Source: Callorhinchus milii
Taxonomy: Eukaryota
NCBI RefSeq assembly: GCF_018977255.1
Contig: NW_024704742.1
Span: 930,001-994,000, forward strand
Direction: 5' to 3'
Length of the DNA stretch: 64,000 nucleotides
A model generated the notes under the pieces. That model was not told the origin of the DNA, made no database searches, and worked only from the letters and a program-made list of their open reading frames with translations. Shown one piece after another: positions 3,395 through 62,557 of the stretch (its first letter is position 1; each line of letters starts with the position of its first letter). Made by a program: the position numbers and the translations under genes.

Positions 3395-4319
3395 GAAACA
3401 TAATCACAGAGAAATATTGTACAAAGGGAGAGAATCTATGTATAGCCACCTAAGCACATTAGCACTTAGCATGTTTGCCTACAAATACATAGTCACTACG
3501 CTTCACAGTAAAATCCTGTAAAAAATGTTCGCGATGTTTTGACTATGTGATAAAAAGCAATATCAAATGCATGAATTATTATAACAACAATACTTGCATT
3601 TGATACAGAACCTTATCGAGTAGTTGGGACATTTCAAAACGCTTCACAGAATAAACTGTAAAGCGAATTGACTGTATATTTTGTGGGCGAATCGTATTAT
3701 TACTATTATTATGACTACCAATAACAAAAAGGGATTAAGGGATATGGGGATAAGGCAGGGTTAGGTTATTAGCTGGAGTTAGATTAGAAGATCAGCCATG
3801 ATTGAATGGCGAGGCAGGCTCGAAGGGCCGAATGGCCTACTCCTGCTCCTACATGTTATGTTATGTTATATTATGTTAAAATGCACACCTATTGAGAGAG
3901 AGTATGCAGAATTCCTCATTTGGTGGACTGAGGTTAGTGATCGAATGTTCTGGGTGGAATTTTCATTTGCACTAGTTGTATTCCTATTACAAAAATCAAA
4001 ACAAATGGATAGAGAGAGAAAAAGACATCCAGTATTTCCCCTCCCAAATCCCAAAGCTCTCATAGATCACGTATGATAGAGGATTGTCTTCTGGAAACAT
4101 TGACATTTTCTGCACAGATGGAGGCCATTCAGCCCATGGTGTTGCGTTGGTGGTCAATTGATTTGCTCCATTTGTTTCCATTGAAACTCGTGTCAACTGC
4201 CCTCGGCTGTGAAGTGTAGTGACTATGTATTTATCGGCAAACATGCTTAGTGTTAATGTGCTTCAGTGGTATGCATAGCTCCTCTCCCTTTGTGCAATAT
4301 TTCCCTGTGACTGTGTTTC
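3395..4319. repeat. inverted duplication, arms 3395-3508 and 4207-4319 (~87% identity)
   Basis: Manual alignment of the left arm with the reverse complement of the right arm: about 15 differences in 114 nt. Confidence 0.9.
3728..3875 (+). mobile_element. CR1 3' terminal fragment
   Basis: GATCAGCCATGATTGAATGGCG...GGCTCGAAGGGCCGAATGGCCTACTCCTGCTCCT followed by a (TTATG)n tail, typical of chondrichthyan CR1 3' ends. Confidence 0.75.
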
Positions 4320-8404: not shown

Positions 8405-9030
8405 GTCCTTGAGCAGCACCCGCTTTCTTCCACCTCTGTCACATTGCCCACCTCCGACCATACCTCACACTCAATGCAGCCGGAACCCTTGTCTACGCTA
8501 TAGTCACCTCCTGCCATGACTATTTCAATGCCCTCTTCTCTGCTCCTCTATCCACAAAATCCACTTAATTCAAAACTGCACCATCCATATACGTACCCGC
8601 TCTAAACTCTGCAACCCCATCGCACCAGTCCTTGCCAGGCTCCACTGGCTCACTATCACAGAATGGATCGACTTCAAGATCCTCTCACTTGTCGAGAATT
8701 TCCTTCACGCCATGGTATCTCCCTACCTTTCCGACCTGCTTACTCCCCACTCCACCACCCGCTGGCTCCACTCTGCTGGCTCTGGCCTCCTGCTTGGCCC
8801 CTTGTCCATTGGTGGCTGTTTGGCCCCTTGCCCATCCAGCCATCACACCCCGAAACTCTGGAACACTCTCCCTCAAACCCGCTGCCTTTCCCCCTCCTTC
8901 TCCATCTTCAGGTCACGCCTGAAGATCTTCCTATCTGACCTACCCCTTCCCCCAGCTCAAAGTCAAGCTCTGTTACTATTAAGCACTCTGAGACGCTATC
9001 TTGCATGACAGAAATGCAAGTTGTTGTTCT
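8405..9030 (+). mobile_element. L2 LINE 3' fragment (decayed)
   Basis: Decayed ORF2 C-terminus (HIAHLRPYLTLNAAGTLVYAIVTS..., LHWL...DFKIL) and L2 tail ...GCAAGTTGTTG. Confidence 0.8.
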
Positions 9031-19307: not shown

Positions 19308-19660
19308 TTAGTCCCGTAGCTCAGTCATTGGAGCACTTGCCTCGCAAGCGAGAGGACCCGGGTTTGATTCCCGGGCTGGGCGAAACGTTGGGCAAGTTTT
19401 CTTATAACACACACCTCTGTTTACCAGCAGCAAGTAGGAACCCAGTTGTTAGTCAATTGGTGGATTGCTTTCCGGGGGACAATAATCCATTCAAAACAAA
19501 AAAAATCATAATAATTTTGGTCATTCAATCGAAGACTGTGGGACACTGCTGTGCACAATTGGCTGCCGCGTTTCGCCCACAAAGTACACATGTGAAGCAC
19601 TTTGAGATGTCTCAAAGACGTGCTAAGGCACTATATCAAATGCAAGGATCATTATTATAT
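19308..19660 (+). mobile_element. tRNA-derived SINE, family A (long subtype), full length
   Basis: A-box GTAGCTCAGTCATTGG, B-box GGTTTGATTCCC, TTGGGCAAGTTT...CCTCTGTTTACCAGCAGCAAGTAGG, Deu-like block, tail. Confidence 0.9.
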
Positions 19661-20905: not shown

Positions 20906-23231
20906 CTGATGGCTCGAGGTTGGATACAACTTTTACCTTGCATCTCCAGGCGGTTCCAGAGTGTGGCACGACTCTTTTATACAGCCTAAGCCTCCAGAGA
21001 CTGGTGTAGCACATGGTGTTCACGTTATGTGTAGACATCTTGACATCTTTGCGCGAGAATTGTGATGATGTCAAAGCACAACTGCATGTGGGAACCAGCA
21101 TTGGAAAATTCAGGGGTTATCTCCGCTACTTAAATAACATCAGTAGAGGCCAGGAGATAATCTGAAAACAACTTTGTTCCTGGCTGTTTTCATGATTTCA
21201 GTACAGTTATTGGGCAGTGGAGATCTCAGAGACCCTGTAATGGTCGTTTTATGAAAGGGAAAGTCGCTGTGTCATCACAATATCCACGGGATGACACAGA
21301 CGCAGGCACAAATCATCCCAGGCCCGCTCCCTCTGACTTGACCATTTCAACAACAATAACTTGCATTTATATAGCATCCCTCACGCAGGGTAGTGGCCCA
21401 GAGCACTTTCATTATAAACTTGGATATCCTGCCTGTGGAGGCAATGGGAGCTCTGACTCCCAAGTTGAGACTTGACAGATCCCGGGCTGGGAATGCAGTA
21501 ACTTTGCTGTTCGCACACTCTTTCAACGCACACTCTAGGGTCCCCAAGTCTTGGCTCTTGTCAAAGTGTGCCTAATATTTTCCAGGATGAGGTGAGTGGG
21601 GTACGTCCCTCAGGGGGGAGAGAGAGTGCGCATTCCATTCCAGACAAACAGAAACTTCCATACATAGTTGGAACTCTCAGTCATTTAGTTTGGATAATTA
21701 CTCTTAAGTAAGGTCTCTTGGATGATCAAGAAAAAAACCCACCCCACTTGGGGGGTGCGGGGAGAGAGGGGGTTTGGGGGCGTGGAATTGGGTGGGGGAA
21801 CAATGCTGAATCCAGTCCAACCTGATGTGAACGCTCTCTCCATCGCGAGTAATGGTGGTCAAGGTTATCATAATGACTGTTAATAAATGGAACATCATGA
21901 CTCACAAGTCACATTTATCCTCTTTTACACCGCAGCTCTTTAGTGCAATTAGTCGCAGCAGCGGGCTCACACAGAGAAATAAGAACAATGTTGGAACCTT
22001 CGCTCACAGGAAAATAAAGTATCCGATTCTCTTGTCTGCAGACTTTGGTCGCATTACACGAGGACCCAGTCCAGTCGACTTTAGCTGTTCACTCCTGCTG
22101 AGACTTGGCTATCTCAGCTGATGGCTTGGTGTCTACACTAATCCAACGCAGGCGAGACGTTTGGTTCACTTCTCTGCGGTCTGCAGAGACAGAGGAAATA
22201 AAACATTGCCCAGTGGTCGTAAATGCGGTCGGGCAGATTGAGACCTGAGGGGTACTGCAGTGCTGTTTTTTTGTGAGGTTTATTATAAGGTAAGGAACTT
22301 ATTGGACACCTCCAGCTGCCATTAATCAGACATGGAGCCTGACTGGAGCCAGGGAAGGGGCCTGTGGGTGTATTCAGCTAAGTGCTGGGGAAATGCAACA
22401 AGACAGAGACAAATGCTTTTTAGACTAACAGCGCTATACCATGTATTTCACAGACTAAATGTGCATGTTAAAATTGATTTGATCAATTTACCCCCTCTGT
22501 CTACTCATCTACTTGGTTTGCAGACTGACATTTTTATGTTTTTTATGTGTTATTTAAGACACATCATATCCAAGTAAACAAATTTCCAGCAATGGCTAAT
22601 CATTTTAAATTGTTTCATTTTCACTGTGTGCATGACATTTACGAGCAGAGCAAACACTGTTGTTATTGTAGGACGTTGGCTTACGTACAATAATTAGTTC
22701 GCCATTATTACTTTTAATAATCCCATCTCTGCTCAAAAAGTTGAAGCTTGTGCATAAGACAAAAAGACTCGCAATGTAAGAGAAGCAACGTGTAAAAAAG
22801 GGTTTACAAAGGAGAAATATTAGAAGGTAAAAGAGATAACAGCGTTCGCTATAGGATTAGGACTGTAGTGCCCAGATTCCATTCAAAGCCTTGTAACACT
22901 ACCAGAGTCATTTTGCAACTAGCCCTCAGGACTCTCCTCTCCTGAACAGTCTTGCACCGACATGTTGCCATGTAGCTTCAAGCAATATTTCCTGCGTGCT
23001 TTCAGAAACTACGGATGGCCTGAAAATCGGAAGGAAACATTGCCATTGTGGTGATACTTTGCTAGATATTTGTTCCACATCTCCCCAAACTCCCCCTATC
23101 TTCCCCTGTGCTGCTCCAGACAATCACGTCAACATTGTAAATAGCTTCGAGACGCGATCCTTTGTGAAAGACAGGATATAAGTACTCGTCTGCATTGTTG
23201 AAAAATCCGAATGGCTTATATGGCTGCGGTG

Positions 23232-23440
23232 AAAAGGAAACTGAAAATGCTGCAAATCCACGAGCTCTCGATGAGCATCTCAAAGAGAAACACAGTTTAA
23301 CGTTTCGGGTGTGACACTTTGTCAGAAATGTTTCGTGAGTTTTGGTGAAAGGCTCACACCCAAACTGTTAGCCCGCCTTTGTCTTTGACACTCAGGTCTA
23401 GCTGCTGTGGGTTTCCCACATGTTTTGTTTTGATTTCTCT
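23232..23440. mobile_element. palindromic putative Penelope-like element remnant with two decayed hammerhead motifs
   Basis: Left arm is the reverse complement of the family seen at 33422-33525 (TCTGACAAAGTGTCACACCCGAAACGTTAAAC on minus); right arm is a more decayed + copy (TTGGTGAAAGGCTCACACCCAAACTGTTAGC). Confidence 0.6.
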
Positions 23441-32404: not shown

Positions 32405-32790
32405 AATAATAATAATAATAATCCCTGCTTGATAATAGCACCTTATCACGTTATCTCGAAATACTTAGTAAAGTGAATTGACTGTGTATTTTGGAGGTGA
32501 ATGAGGCAGACAATTTGCACGTAGCAATGTTCCACAAACATCCATGGAGTAAGCGATCAATTCAATTTGGAGATTTGTTAGCAGGACACTGGGAGAACCT
32601 CCCTCTTTTCGAACAGTGCCATGAGATCTTTAACATTCACCAGAACAGGCAGACGGGACCTTGGTTTAAGGTCTCATCTGAAGGACGGCACCTCTGACAA
32701 CGTAACACCCCTCCAGCTCTGCATTGGAGTGTCAGCTTAGCCTTTGTGATTCCAAGTCCCGACATGGGGATTGAGGCGAGACTGTGCTCG
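32405..32790 (-). mobile_element. Deu-domain SINE
   Basis: Reverse complement has GAGGTGCCGTCCTTCAGATGAGACCTTAAACCAAGGTCCCGTCTGCC and the tail. Confidence 0.85.
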
Positions 32791-33421
32791 GTCGACAAAT
32801 TCATTGCTGTTTGTGGGACATTGCTGTGTGCAAATTGGCTGCTCTGTTGGCCTACTCTACTTCATGTGTTTTGAGACTTTATAGGTTCTATAGCAAATCC
32901 AAGGATTATTATTATTATTATTATTGGAGCTGCATATGCATGCTATCGTGACCTTTTAATTATATCCAATGAAATGCATAGATCATTGCCATAAAAGCAA
33001 ACTACATACGAAAATGCATACAATATAAAAATCCCGCACTAGAGATTCTGCATCCAATATATAATAAAATACATATGTATATATCAGGGCTTTCTTACAT
33101 CATGTTGTTAGGAGTCAGGAAATTGAATATTAAAGTGGATTTCTCTGAGGGAGTATCCCCATTCATTATAGCCATTTCTCAGTCCACGACTTCTGGCAAC
33201 AGCGAGGATTCACATTATAAATATCAGTGAATATTTTCTCACCCTCCCACCCACCCCATCGGATCATTACTGTTTGGAACGAGTTGTGAAGGAAACAACC
33301 GGCTCATTTTTTGTCGGGTAGAATGAATGCCTGGAAGTGTCCTCAGTGAAAAATGGAAAATGGGAGGGGGTGGGATTTCATTGTATTCATTGGCAGAATC
33401 AGCCAACTGGCTGCTCCCCCA

Positions 33422-33462
33422 TGAGTTCTGACGAAAGGTCATCGACCTGAAACGTTAACTCA
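33422..33462 (+). ncRNA. minimal type I hammerhead ribozyme motif (Penelope-like element type)
   Basis: Stem I TGAGTT/AACTCA; core CTGACGA; extra A; stem II AGGTC-ATC-GACCT; GAAA; palindromic stem III ACGT; cleavage triplet GUU. Confidence 0.75.
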
Positions 33463-33525
33463 CTTTCCTCTCTCCAGAGATGCGGCCTGTCCTGCTGAGT
33501 GTTCCCAAATGACTTTTGTTTTTCC
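33422..33525 (+). mobile_element. putative Penelope-like element terminal remnant
   Basis: Hammerhead followed by CTCTCTCCAGAGATGCGGCCTGTCCTGCTGAGTGTTCCC...TTTTGTTTTT, homologous to both arms at 23232-23440. Confidence 0.55.
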
Positions 33526-33744
33526 TCCTGCTACGTTCCTTGCTGGAGAGTAGTGTGAAGTGCAATAGAGAGCAGAAGGGATCAACTTTACCACTGATTC
33601 CACATGTCTGTATCTGATTAATTGAAAAATTGGGGTAAAGATTTGCTGTGTTTCTTCTCCTGTTCCTTGTCTTAATTAGCTAAGGAACAGGTTAAAAAAT
33701 TCCACAAATTTTGACGTCAAGGCAAATTTAAGAAATACCGCAAA

Positions 33745-34070
33745 TTCGACATCGATCAAGCAAGACGCCAAGGTTCTGGACTGGCTCAGTGAGGTGGAGT
33801 GTGCATCTTTGGATGGTGATGCTGCCAGTCAACTGATGAGAAGGCGCTGATGGGAGCCAAACAGGAGAGCCTCGGTCTTGTTGACGTTCAGCTGTAGAAA
33901 GTTGGCTCTCATCCAGGACTTAATGTCTGACAGACATTCTGTCAGGACAGCAGTGGGTCCTGGAGTCGAAAGTGGAGGCAGAGAGGTACAGTTGGGTGTC
34001 AACTACATACATGTGGAAGTTGACACCATGTCTGCGGATGATGTCACCAAGAGGGAACATAGATATGTTA
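33745..34070 (-). mobile_element. L2 LINE reverse-transcriptase fragment
   Basis: Minus strand reads PLGDIIRRHGVNFHMYVVDTQLYLS (decayed YADD) and then LQLNVNKTEA. Confidence 0.85.
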
Positions 34071-34179
34071 AAGAAAATAACACAGTGAAGTTTACAGGGA
34101 GCGAAGAGAGAGGAAGAGAAGGAGATAATAATAATGAAAATAAGACTGTACTAAACCTGATTCGAGTAATTCAAAAACT

Positions 34180-34390
34180 GTAAAGTGAATTGACAGCATA
34201 TTTTGTGGACGAAACACGGCAGCCAATAGCGCATAGCAGCGTTCCGCAAACAGTCATAGATTGAGTGACCAAATTGATAGTATTTGGGGGGATAGTATTT
34301 AACAACTGGGTTGATACTTACTGCCGGATAAACAGTGGTGCATGGAGTAAGGAAACTTGCCTAAGCTTTCATCCCAAGTCCTCTCGCTTT
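34180..34390 (-). mobile_element. SINE family A internal fragment
   Basis: GAAACACGGCAGCCAATAGCGCATAGCAGC...TGGAGTAAGGAAACTTGCC. Confidence 0.7.
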
Positions 34391-35999
34391 CAAACCAAGA
34401 AAGTTGTTATGGATCTAAGGATTTGTTTCAATGTTCTAACCCCTGGGAGGTCATTACTCAGTTACTACTGTCATTACTCAAACACTGGTAAGGTTTCCAG
34501 GTGTTTTATATGGTTCCAATGAAATGCCCCCTCACCTGAAGACACTGACACTTGCTATATGTGGTGGTTGTCCTCCACTGCCTTGCCTGAGTGGCCATTC
34601 CTCCATTCGTGAGTCCGGTCTGAACAGTGAGAGCTGGCTGCCTACTCAACCCTCACTCTGTCTCTGTGCTGAGGGAGGGCTGTACGGGTGGAAGGGTGAA
34701 TGAGGTGAGTCTAACTTTCTGCGCCAGCTTCCATGAAAATTCCACTCGGCAGTCTTGCTTCTTGCGGAGCTTTCGACGTGACTGCTGGAAAATGTGAAGT
34801 GACGAACGCAACTGCCAGCTCCCTGTGCTGAGGACGCCACCGGCTGCATCGCGGCGCACTTGCCTACCCCCATTTATAAATCCAGTAACGTGTCTCCCGA
34901 GACCCTTTCCCAGACAACAGTAACCCTTTTTACCAGTGGCAGTAGCCGTGTTAGCAGCTGGTTCCTTAATCCAGTGAGATCTTGTTCAATTCAATAGACT
35001 GGATTGGAGAGAAACTGGCTGCTGAGGGCAGGTGTCTTCAGTCCAGCTGCCCACAAGGATAGGTTTCATTGCCTTTCAATTCACTTCCTATTCCAAGGGT
35101 TAGTTTGAAAATTGATACAATCTAAGTATGTACATACAGATCTTACCCATCTAATGTTAGGTCTTGATTTTAGAGATTATCCCATTTCCTCGAAGGTTTG
35201 CAGTGGCCTCAGTTTTAATCAAGTCAGGCCTGCCTTTGCTGTGACTAACTGATTTGACTTGAACTTTCTTAAACTCTGCCTCTGCAGCATGTTCGTAAAC
35301 TTTGTTTTAAATTTATTCCGCCTTCAATGCACTATTCAATTTCACACTTCTGCAAAGACTGTACCCACAAGCCCTCCCCTCTCTTCTCTCTTCTCTCTCT
35401 CTCTCTGCATGTTGGAGTAGCCTGGAAATCCAGTTGTACAAATATTATTTTCTTTCCCTACAGGTATCAGTAGCACTTTGAGCTTAAAAGATTACATTAC
35501 TAGATATGGCACAATGAGAAAATGACATCTGCTTCACAGGCCCGGTCTAAATTGTCCAATCTATTAGTCCGGTCATAACTGCCAAGACTGATGGAAAGCT
35601 CCTTTAGTTGACTACTTACTAATGTTGTTTCTTTTGGGTTTTGTTTGTACTTTAAAAGCCTCTTACGGAGAGTAACGGGCTGAAACTAAGGGCCATATCC
35701 TCAGGAAGTGTAGCGTTTTAGGAGGCAGGTCCAGAGACGTTGATAAAACACTCACACTGAGTGAATAGCTGACTGAGGGGCATGTCATGGAGAGATGGAT
35801 CAAGTTCCCAAGAGGATGTGAGCGAGTAAGAAGAAAATCATCCTGTGAGTGTCCAACGAACTACAGAGGCACAGCAGAGGTTCCCCTGTCCCTTTTGGCA
35901 AAGGCTTATGGTGCAATCCACATTGTGCAGTGTGAGGTTTATTGTGTATCGGTGCCGAAGCCCTCTAAAGTAAAGGATATATTTGCCACCTCAACTATT

Positions 36000-40259: not shown

Positions 40260-40415
40260 CGCCAATCGATTAACAACCGGGTTCCCGCTTACTGCGAGGT
40301 AAACAGAGACGTGTGGAGTAAGCGAACTTGCCCAATGTTTCTCCCCGACCTGGCAATCGAACCCAGGTCCTCTCGCTTGCGAGGCGAGTGCCCTAACCAC
40401 CAAGCTACAGGACTC
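40260..40415 (-). mobile_element. SINE family A 5' half
   Basis: Reverse complement begins GGAGTCCTGTAGCTTGGTGGTTAGGG...GGTTCGATTGCC. Confidence 0.8.
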
Positions 40416-40757: not shown

Positions 40758-41088
40758 GTGGAGTCCTGTGGCTCAGTGGTTAGAGCACTCTCCTCGCAAG
40801 CGAGAGACCTGGGTTTGATTCCCGGCGGGGGGCCAAACCTTGGGTAAGTTTCCTTACTCCACACACCTGATAATAATCCCTCAAGAAAAAAAATAAAATA
40901 AATTGTTCATTTTCAATCCACGGCTGTGTGTGGGGACGCTGCTGTGCGCAAATTGGCTGTCGTGTTTCGCCCACAAATATACAGTCAATTCACTTTACAG
41001 TATGTTCTGTGAAGCGCTTTGAGAGGTCTAGAAGATGTGAAAAGCGTTATATCAAATGCAAGGATTATTATTATTATCATTATTATTA
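40758..41088 (+). mobile_element. tRNA-derived SINE, family A (short subtype), full length
   Basis: A/B boxes, CCTTGGGTAAGTTTCCTTACTCCACAC, Deu-like block, (TTA)n tail. Confidence 0.9.
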
Positions 41089-51199: not shown

Positions 51200-51860
51200 T
51201 GCGTTCGATGTTTGCACCTTTCGAGTTGGAAAGACGTCTGAAGGCACTTTACTGACATGTGTAATAACTGTATGATTTGTAAGCAAACATGGCCACCAAA
51301 CTGCACACACTTGTGGTAGTGTCCCACAAACAGCCATGAAGTGAATGACCAATTTTATCAAGGTGATTGTTGGCCAGGACACTGGAGAAACTACCTCCCC
51401 TTTCTGAATAGTTCCACGTAATCTTTATAATAATAATAATAATCCTTGCATTTGATATAACGCTTTTCACGTCGGGAGGACGTCCCAAAGCGCTTCACAG
51501 AATATACTGTAAAGTGAATTGACTGTATATTTGTGGGCGAACGCGGCAGCCAATTGCGCACAGCAATGTCCCACAGTCATGGATTGAAAATGACCAATTT
51601 ATTATTGTTTTTGGTTTTGGAGGGATTATTATTAGGCTCTGTGTGGAGTAAGGAAACTTGCCCAAGGTTTCGCCCTCTGCCTGGAATTGAACTCAGGTCT
51701 CTCGCTTGCAAAGCGAGTGCTCTAACCACTGAGCTACAGGACTCCACGTCCTTTAACAACCAATTGAACAGGGAGCTCGGATGAATGTCTTGGCCAAAGA
51801 ACGACAACTCTGACATTGCAATATTCTCCCAGCACTGCATTGGCGTGTCAGCCTAGACCA
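51200..51860 (-). mobile_element. Deu-domain SINE interrupted by a family A SINE
   Basis: Deu-SINE sequence at ~51200-51427 resumes at ~51748-51860. Confidence 0.7.
51428..51747 (-). mobile_element. tRNA-derived SINE, family A (short subtype), full length
   Basis: Minus-strand head GTGGAGTCCTGTAGCTCAGTGGTTAGAGCAC...AGTTCAATTCC; very similar to 55150-55471. Confidence 0.9.
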
Positions 51861-55149: not shown

Positions 55150-55471
55150 ATAATAATAATAATCTTTGCATTTGATATAGCATGTTTTCACATCGTTGAG
55201 ACGATTCAAAGAGCTTCACAGACTATATTGTAAATTGGATTGACTGTGCATTTTGTGGGTGAAACACGGCAGCCAATTGCGCACAGCAGCGTCCCACAAA
55301 CAGTCGTGGATTGAAGTGACCAATTTATTATTGTTTTTGGTTTTGGAGGGATTATCATTAGGCTCTGTGTGGAGTAAGGAAACTTGCCCAAGGTTTCGCC
55401 CTTTGCCTGGAATTGAACCCAGGTCTCTCGCTTGCAAAGCGAGTGCTCCGACCACTGAGCTACAGAACTCC
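55150..55471 (-). mobile_element. tRNA-derived SINE, family A (short subtype), full length
   Basis: Same architecture as 51428-51747. Confidence 0.9.
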
Positions 55472-62164: not shown

Positions 62165-62557
62165 GTGGACTCCTATAGCTCAGTAGTTAGAGCGCTTGCC
62201 TTGCATGCCAGAGACCTGGGTTCGATTCCCACCAGAGTCAAAAGTTAGGCAAGTTTCCTTACTCGACACACCTCTGCTTACCTAGCAGTAAGTAGGAACC
62301 TGGTTGTTAGTCGATTGGTGGATCACTTTTCCGGGGGTAATAATTCCTTCAAAGGAAAATAATAATAATAAATTGGTCACTTAGTCCACGACTGTTTGTG
62401 GGACACTGCTGTCCGCAATTGGCTCCCGCGTTTTGCCCACAAAATATACAGTCAGTTTGCTTTGTAGTGTATTGTGCGAAGCACTTTGAGACTTCTTGAA
62501 GATGTGATAAGGTGCTATATCAAATGCAAGGATTAATATTATTATTATTGTTATTAT
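62165..62557 (+). mobile_element. tRNA(Ala-like)-derived SINE, family A (long subtype), full length
   Basis: A-box TAGCTCAGTAG, anticodon-like TTGCAT, B-box GGTTCGATTCC, CORE-like block, Deu-like block, (TTA)n tail. Confidence 0.9.

Follow-up and report, generated by a model that had tools for sequence, protein, structure and literature searches.

The 64,000-nucleotide stretch of Callorhinchus milii DNA analyzed here (the window) carries on its plus strand a short segment that had been read, from the letters alone, as an intact-looking minimal hammerhead ribozyme in a putative Penelope-like remnant, potentially able to cut a host pre-mRNA. The locus raises the question of what this motif is, how it came to lie where it does, and whether it is likely to cleave RNA there. 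Overall, we conclude with a probability of roughly 0.88 that it is the hammerhead of the pseudo-LTR/ORF (open reading frame) junction of a Penelope-like element (PLE), preserved in a dead solo insertion of ~100 bp. The proposal of a minimal type I hammerhead of the PLE kind in a PLE remnant is thus upheld, as the tail classes, inverted partners, and linkage to reverse transcriptase (RT) and GIY-YIG coding sequence described below all agree with it.

The window contains one minimal hammerhead motif

The motif and its parts were read from the sequence as follows.

33422..33462, + strand: minimal type I hammerhead motif, from the sequence reading and as the sole descriptor match in the window
33422-33427 with 33457-33462, + strand: stem I, 6 bp, TGAGTT with AACTCA
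33428-33434, + strand: core CTGACGA (CUGACGA)
33435, + strand: unpaired A after A9
33436-33448, + strand: stem II hairpin of 5 bp with a 3-nt loop (AGGTC 33436-33440, loop ATC 33441-33443, GACCT 33444-33448)
33449-33452, + strand: GAAA
33453-33454 and 33455, + strand: CG and T; the palindromic, loopless stem III, ACGU, is 33452-33455
33456, + strand: T, which is U17 in standard hammerhead numbering; predicted cut after U17

This segmentation coincides to the base with that of the sequence-only reading, and the cleavage position given there, after U33456, agrees with standard numbering, in which the scissile bond follows U17 (33456). A descriptor was assembled from CTGANGA, a stem II of at least 4 bp with 0 to 1 unpaired base, GAAA, a palindromic loopless stem III, U followed by H, and a stem I of at least 4 bp. 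Run on both strands of the 64-kb window, it matched one site, 33422-33462, and it matched none in 300 dinucleotide-preserving shuffles of the window; the structure-descriptor search that had been suggested with the first reading thus recovered the motif once.

Rfam holds the hammerhead families Hammerhead_1, Hammerhead_II, Hammerhead_3, HH9, and HH10, whose catalytic core is the same as that of the window motif. The Rfam search, likewise suggested at the outset, yielded no hammerhead at gathering scores anywhere in the window and none at E up to 10 over positions 33000-34000. The miss is probably explained by the closed stem III hairpin that these models expect, and we ascribe this silence to the models and do not count it against the motif.

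Features of the motif correspond closely to the PLE minimal hammerheads described by Cervera and de la Pena (2014, PMC4209133). These share with it the type I topology (here, stem II closed by a 3-nt loop and stem I open), the CUGANGA/GAAA core (here CUGACGA, GAAA, C-G, U16.1, and U as H17), a palindromic 15.2-16.2 (C-G) without loop 3 (here ACGU at 33452-33455), and one unpaired base between A9 and 10.1. The extra A after A9, to which the sequence-only reading had drawn attention, is therefore a listed hallmark of the class (PMC4209133). Differences were also found: 10.1-11.1 is A-U in the window copy and its subfamily, whereas the article stresses G10.1-C11.1, which a sister subfamily keeps; stem II has 5 bp, compared to 6 to 8 bp in the schistosome and Drosophila variants; and the host is of the cartilaginous-fish type, absent from the article's main text (PMC4209133). 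A local 9-mer self-duplex is predicted at -5.5 kcal/mol. The outer 2 pairs of stem I (33422-33423 with 33461-33462) are particular to the window copy, as longer family copies carry CCAGTT at the stem I position, which leaves 4 bp.

The motif belongs to a large repeat family that decays neutrally

The genome searched comprises 991.5 Mb in 1762 contigs. The 35-mer that runs from CUGACGA to the end of stem I has, in the window copy, the commonest sequence of the family. Exact copies of it number 28 in the genome, and matches rise to 1264 once up to 3 mismatches are allowed, compared to 0 for a reversed control pattern. The window copy is accordingly a member of a repeat family of more than 1000 copies, as had been proposed. 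The generic pattern CTGANGA-N10-24-GAAACGTH gave 5913 genomic matches against 594 for its control pattern, and the genome therefore holds about five thousand minimal-hammerhead-like cores above background. These counts supply the genome-wide tally of cores that the sequence-only reading had called for.

The 594 control matches, together with a hand tally in which about 10 of 100 listed generic matches look unrelated to any family, show how a loose motif of this kind could be matched by chance. For the window motif, this explanation has a negligible probability, since the full descriptor found nothing in 300 window shuffles and the motif sits in a family of more than 1000 copies for which the control gave 0.

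Conservation of core nucleotides, which had been put forward as a sign of function, was assessed by hand tally in 72 listed copies with one mismatch to the 35-mer. CpG transitions account for 43 of the changes. The lethal change of G8 to A was seen in 8 copies and the harmless change of C7 to U in 14, which does not make the former clearly rarer. Preferential conservation of the core after insertion was accordingly rejected, and no selection is visible in the 72 listed copies. Among 39 copies chosen by their 3' part, 1 retained an intact motif under the descriptor. Inserted copies thus decay neutrally, mainly by CpG loss.

The window copy is 90% identical to a long natural copy over unit positions 3-101 (unit 1 being window position 33422), and downstream of the motif it differs from the usual family sequence at about 1 position in 10. 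Its perfect hammerhead is explained by numbers: with more than 1000 copies, a few per cent should be intact by chance. The letter-perfect share, 28 of 1264 or 2.2%, is close to the ~2% expected from ~10% drift over 35 nt, and the perfection of the window copy is therefore one of ascertainment, the copy having been picked for looking intact.

Copies share a preferred 5' boundary and end in two 3' classes

When window positions 33380-33500 were searched against the genome, 2728 first-look candidates yielded 48 scored matches. All 48 begin at 33422-33426, the first bases of stem I, and they end at 33507-33523. From these matches and the family boundaries, the insertion was placed as follows.

about 33424..33523, + strand: solo PLE segment of ~100 bp, consisting of the hammerhead and ~60 nt downstream

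Boundaries were determined in two samples of copies. The first comprised 68 copies taken in list order and chosen only for the 35-mer at up to 1 mismatch. Their 5' ends fell at unit -2 to +7 in 60 of 68, while the remaining 8 run upstream into a common pyrimidine-rich sequence. At the 3' side, 38 of 68 ended at unit 99-112, 20 (the reference copy counted) at 131-141, and 10 elsewhere, which defines two 3'-end classes ~35 nt apart, 65 to 100 nt downstream of the hammerhead. The window copy, ending at ~33523, belongs to the short, tail-less class. The second sample comprised 39 copies chosen only by the non-hammerhead part, unit 45-141, with a measurable 5' end in 38; of these ends, 21 lay at unit 2-8, another 3 upstream, and 14 within the hammerhead. 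With 14 of 38 copies truncated within the motif, the 5' boundary is a preference and not a fixed limit.

A head-to-head inverted partner within 200 nt upstream was found for 30 of the 68 copies of the first sample, with scattered partner truncation points. At some junctions, such as L003 and L008, the inverted partner meets the forward copy exactly through stem I sequence. The window copy has no inverted partner, and its promoter region is also absent. In the portion of Craig et al. (PMC8557442) drawn on here, PLE insertions are characterized by extensive 5' truncation, by partial tandems, by an inverted and likewise 5'-truncated copy next to the 5' end, by a tail of 30 to 40 bp that may or may not be present, and by a hammerhead in the pseudo-LTR. 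The family displays 5' truncation with inverted, 5'-truncated partners, and its two 3'-end classes correspond to the optional tail. The thousands of mostly solo copies per genome, arranged in families with some opposite-strand pairs, are likewise a feature of the published PLE minimal hammerheads (PMC4209133).

Copies beginning at the predicted cut (unit 36) were considered as a possible in vivo footprint of cleavage, and this candidate was rejected, as no cluster was present in either sample. In the second sample (n = 38), the 5' ends nearest the cut were at unit 38 and 39. Starts of inverted partners are scattered, with one at unit 36, a junction that is ambiguous because stem I is self-complementary.

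Arrangement of copies also bears on the possibility that the unit is a non-LTR retrozyme, that is, a tandem non-autonomous element whose hammerheads cut multimers into circularizing units. Animal retrozymes carry type I hammerheads and are non-autonomous, probably PLE-mobilized, and made from pseudo-LTR sequence, as far as the parts of PMC7229834 and of the preprint by Li, Clavereau, and Pollet (2026) used here describe them; the latter derives retrozymes from PLE pseudo-LTRs and, in the same parts, reports them in its one chondrichthyan genome (10.64898/2026.07.22.740005). Head-to-tail repeats giving circular RNAs are the rule in the retrozymes so described (PMC7229834), whereas in the window's family none of 58 loci had another copy on the same strand within 450 nt to either side. 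The window, too, holds a single copy, without another on the same strand in its 64 kb, and family copies have defined 5' and 3' ends and partners that are inverted, not tandem. A retrozyme is therefore very unlikely, and the solo PLE insertion is the reading that we retain.

Duplicated loci were encountered among the copies. Two exact copies in one fetched region (L065, G000:C4:54252001-54262000, at 3828-3928 and 8503-8603) were considered as the pseudo-LTRs of a single element, and this was rejected: the copies lie 4675 bp apart, and the sequence to either side, in which a partial inverted partner is included, is the same for both, which indicates a recent tandem duplication of a ~4.7-kb segment. 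In another case, 91-nt stretches on a small contig (L146, G000:C33:77243-77333) and a chromosome-scale one (L155, G000:C3:37545340-37545430) are identical, flank included, reflecting either a duplicated region or assembly redundancy.

A decayed relative lies elsewhere in the window

The sequence-only reading had assigned positions 23232-23440 to the same repeat family. Two stretches were recognized there.

23230..23330, - strand: old diverged relative of the unit, 64% identity over 107 nt to the long natural copy
23402..23437, + strand: partial relative, head to head with the minus-strand copy; a weak match, 26/36 identities to unit 71-106

The minus-strand alignment has an E value of 1e-05 against a 501-nt subject, and its hammerhead core is broken (CTGACAA, with G8 changed to A). 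A relative of the same kind is thus present, as had been claimed, although it is distant and decayed and does not belong to the same family in the narrow sense.

The family is linked to Penelope-like coding sequence

A Pfam search of the genome for GIY-YIG gave 2 matches only (PF01541, 35.4 and 33.4 bits), both of them broken PLE copies, and no unit was found in their wider flanks. An RT/endonuclease fragment from that search (P0001) was then used as a protein query, and 30 loci were fetched. The unit lies downstream of the RT/endonuclease sequence and on the same strand at L056/L066, L061, and L050; at L056/L066, it starts ~250 nt after the endonuclease region. An inverted unit lies upstream of the coding sequence at L052 and L056. 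Association with RT and GIY-YIG ORFs, which also marks the published PLE minimal hammerheads (PMC4209133), therefore holds in the sense orientation for the family, and not at the window locus itself. The ORFs linked to the window's family are broken, and the searches turned up no complete and intact autonomous element of the subfamily to which the window copy belongs.

An unrelated PLE family was found on several small unplaced contigs (for example L055, L063, and L064) as tandem arrays with a period of ~3.0 kb and open ORFs of 744 to 825 amino acids; it looks young compared to the window's family. Its 819-aa ORF matches RVT_1 at an E value of 9e-12 and contains LPKIHK and YVDD motifs, with GVY...YIGET visible by eye at a C terminus where Pfam recognized no GIY-YIG. 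Immediately ahead of the start codon, every unit has a minimal hammerhead of its own, and a TATATATAA box lies ~35 nt upstream of the hammerhead. That hammerhead has a 5-pair stem I and a 6-pair stem II, both of unrelated sequence, an unpaired C after A9, G10.1-C11.1, ACGU as in the window, and C17.

These comparisons also address the reading of the unit as the 3' tail of a minus-strand LINE or SINE, with an incidental hammerhead on the plus strand. At first sight, one end of the unit is sharp and the other varies, which on the minus strand resembles 5' truncation, and the window is rich in tRNA-derived repeats. The "variable" end, however, consists of two classes ~35 nt apart and not of a truncation series; the true truncation series is on the plus strand, extending upstream into common sequence and same-strand RT coding; and the unrelated PLE family has the same architecture, in sense, just before its ORF. 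We consider such a tail scarcely credible, and the PLE reading is carried forward.

An ATG at unit 59-61 (window 33480-33482), ~20 nt after the hammerhead, opens a frame in family copies. By eye, this frame stays open for 27 codons to the long-class unit end in typical copies, while that of the window copy closes after 10. By analogy, the ATG would fit an ORF start beside the hammerhead, as in the anole element discussed below.

The stems vary in sequence and keep their pairing

Pairs were counted on 7 gap-free, hand-picked relatives of the window's superfamily. In stem II, 97.1% of cells hold a pair, and in 2 of the 5 pairs both partners vary; among 500 shuffles, 16 attained the covariation score. 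Stem covariation, which the sequence-only reading had named as a check, was thus borne out in the compensated pairs of stem II (n = 7), with support that is modest because the set is small, hand-picked, and related. The same relatives show that, of stem I, the 4 inner pairs alone are common to the family, and the unpaired base after A9 is A in 7 of 7.

Counts at 10.1-11.1 in these relatives were A-U 3, G-C 3, and G.U 1, and a rough hand tally of 100 listed generic matches gave about 40 G-C, about 20 G.U, about 20 A-U, and 1 A.C. Within the superfamily, the commonest genomic variant has G-C at this position and the second has G.U, with A-U in the window's subfamily. Pairing at 10.1-11.1 is therefore kept, and the identity of the pair is not. 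MAFFT left the stems of the two unrelated PLE families out of register, and the families were therefore compared by eye. Sister subfamilies and the unrelated PLE family keep the architecture with different, compensating stems.

The window copy stands alone among other repeats

No coding sequence was recognized near the insertion, and none of the window's 47 longest open frames matched Pfam. A 5-nt repeat (CTGCT) beside the window copy was considered as a target-site duplication and dropped as doubtful, a clean duplication not being definable. Contigs of four sequencing runs cover only the repeated parts of 32500-34500, with 33371-33571 included and the unique flanks uncovered; as the RNA label of these runs is a guess and assembled contigs cannot show RNA ends, this coverage carries no word on expression or cleavage.

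Other repeats were noted in passing. Stretches on either side of the PLE fragment (32461-32855 and 34177-34369) are repeats common to many fetched loci, with very high summed contig depth, and represent other abundant interspersed families. A possible small foldback repeat, an 81-nt stretch at 33635-33715, lies ~110 nt downstream of the fragment; it matches itself inverted at 69% identity, and its Rfam matches, of the hairpin type, are weak and do not reach threshold (E 0.011 to about 4). Six Rfam tRNA matches in the window (32.6 to 43.6 bits) lie at 19317-19374 (+), 40350-40407 (-), 40765-40829 (+), 51677-51739 (-), 55404-55464 (-), and 62169-62239 (+). Most of them cover the model only in part, and their anticodon arms are nearly the same; in appearance they are the heads of SINEs from a tRNA-derived family and not tRNA genes.

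Cleavage at the locus is unlikely

In published tests, cleavage by single minimal hammerheads was not detectable, and dimers had only low activity (PMC4209133); a review, in the part cited here, agrees on none as a single motif and little as a dimer (PMC6765202). The anole hammerhead, according to the sections of PMC11167929 that we use, needed protein and was dispensable for insertion in vitro. For the window copy, an intermolecular helix III would have 4 bp at best. For the 41-mer, the fold of lowest predicted energy (-13.1 kcal/mol) has UGACG of the core paired to CGUUA, which surrounds the cleavage site, compared to a predicted -10.4 kcal/mol for the hammerhead-compatible fold. Cleavage at this locus is unlikely because a dimer is thought to be needed and the copy is solo, without a same-strand partner. 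Given the handicaps named here, namely the missing same-strand partner, the 4-bp helix III, the core-hiding fold, and the non-consensus 10.1-11.1, the window copy is very probably inert at this locus. The suggestion that it is catalytically competent and could cut a host pre-mRNA found nothing in its support, the copy being solo and published single motifs remaining uncut (PMC4209133).

The same evidence weighs on a takeover by the host, in which the window copy would work as a self-cleaving ribozyme, for example in a pre-mRNA, like the proposed amniote intronic hammerheads. Such a takeover would account for a 35-mer that equals the family mode although the rest of the copy differs at about 1 position in 10, and for a stem I two pairs longer than that of the family. 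The share of letter-perfect copies, however, is about what 10% drift predicts, and this copy was picked for looking intact; moreover, it has no dimer partner in the window, a predicted fold that hides the core, A-U instead of G10.1-C11.1, and no recognized coding sequence nearby. We regard host takeover as highly improbable, and the dead PLE insertion remains the preferred reading.

Discussion

We propose that the source element would have been transcribed from a promoter in its pseudo-LTR, and that its RT would start at one of two internal sites, ~105 or ~140 nt downstream of the first base of the hammerhead. Synthesis of cDNA would usually end at or near the base of stem I, and the product would be a short DNA copy with the hammerhead first and a T-rich stretch last. 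Frequent head-to-head joining to a truncated inverted copy would arise because both target strands are cut and extended. The window copy would then be a dead-on-arrival fragment without promoter region, ORF, or partner hammerhead.

This scheme draws on the anole element Poseidon PAc (Anolis carolinensis; Mob DNA 2024, PMC11167929). In the sections of that article cited here, RT starts just downstream of a hammerhead that lies at the start of the ORF, the tail is explained by two adjacent internal RT starts within the first 172 nt of the ORF, and the protein cuts and extends both target strands. PAc and the window's family share a hammerhead at the pseudo-LTR/ORF junction, insertions that end at two nearby sites shortly downstream of it (the tail), and, in keeping with inverted pairs, the ability of both target strands to prime. 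By this analogy, the two 3'-end classes and the head-to-head pairs of the window's family fit PLE tail formation and two-strand priming. The sites were shown biochemically in PAc, whereas here they are deduced from copy boundaries, and the pile-up of 5' ends at the hammerhead base seen here is not described in those sections. As reported there, hammerhead mutants of PAc still inserted in vitro and no RNA-seq reads ended at the cut site, which leaves the role of the ribozyme open in PAc too (PMC11167929). The near-absence of copies that start at the predicted cut argues that hammerhead-cleaved RNA was not the main template in the window's family, in agreement with the anole results in vitro.

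Against the PLE reading stand the A-U at 10.1-11.1 where the published hammerheads have G-C, the broken state of the linked ORFs, and the lack of a clean target-site duplication.

The preferred 5' end may be a transcription start. Penelope transcription has been placed as starting in the pseudo-LTR, in the portion of PMC8557442 cited above. In about 10 of 17 long copies of the window's family, a TTATAA-like box lies 28 to 33 nt upstream of CCAGTTC; it is absent in about 7 of 17. We take CCAGTTC to fit the initiator pattern YYANWYY, and the box and this initiator-like sequence, together with the 5'-end pile-up, are the patterns on which the suggestion of a transcription start is founded. A further step would be to regard the 105- and 140-bp units as complete DNA copies, running from a transcription start at the base of stem I to the first internal RT start, a tentative idea that we hold to be rather unlikely. 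If true, the units would be a genome-wide in vivo footprint of internal initiation, so far seen only in vitro with the anole element; the transcript would begin with the hammerhead, whose stem I could in that position serve snap-back or template-switch joining, which the L003 and L008 junctions fit; and cutting tandem transcripts would not be the role of the hammerhead.

In long copies such as L111, L089, and L029, the 50 nt upstream of the hammerhead contain a pyrimidine tract ending in CAG, like a 3' splice site. In the Penelope element of Drosophila virilis, an intron has been reported whose end coincides with the 5' edge of helix I (PMC4209133).

The class to which the window motif belongs is already known, having been described in 2014, and the motif is of low interest in itself. 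None of the 15 top-ranked papers of a literature search on Penelope elements and hammerheads named Callorhinchus; the supplements of the 2014 article or of the 2026 preprint may already list cartilaginous-fish motifs. For the host genome, the insertion means very little, being one neutral fossil among thousands. For the PLE lineage, the copy boundaries support two adjacent internal RT starts and two-strand priming, independently and in a distant vertebrate lineage, and the preferred 5' end at the hammerhead base offers a possible transcription start that is testable. The family also documents a natural replacement of G-C by G.U and A-U at 10.1-11.1 in a hammerhead lineage that was still amplifying.
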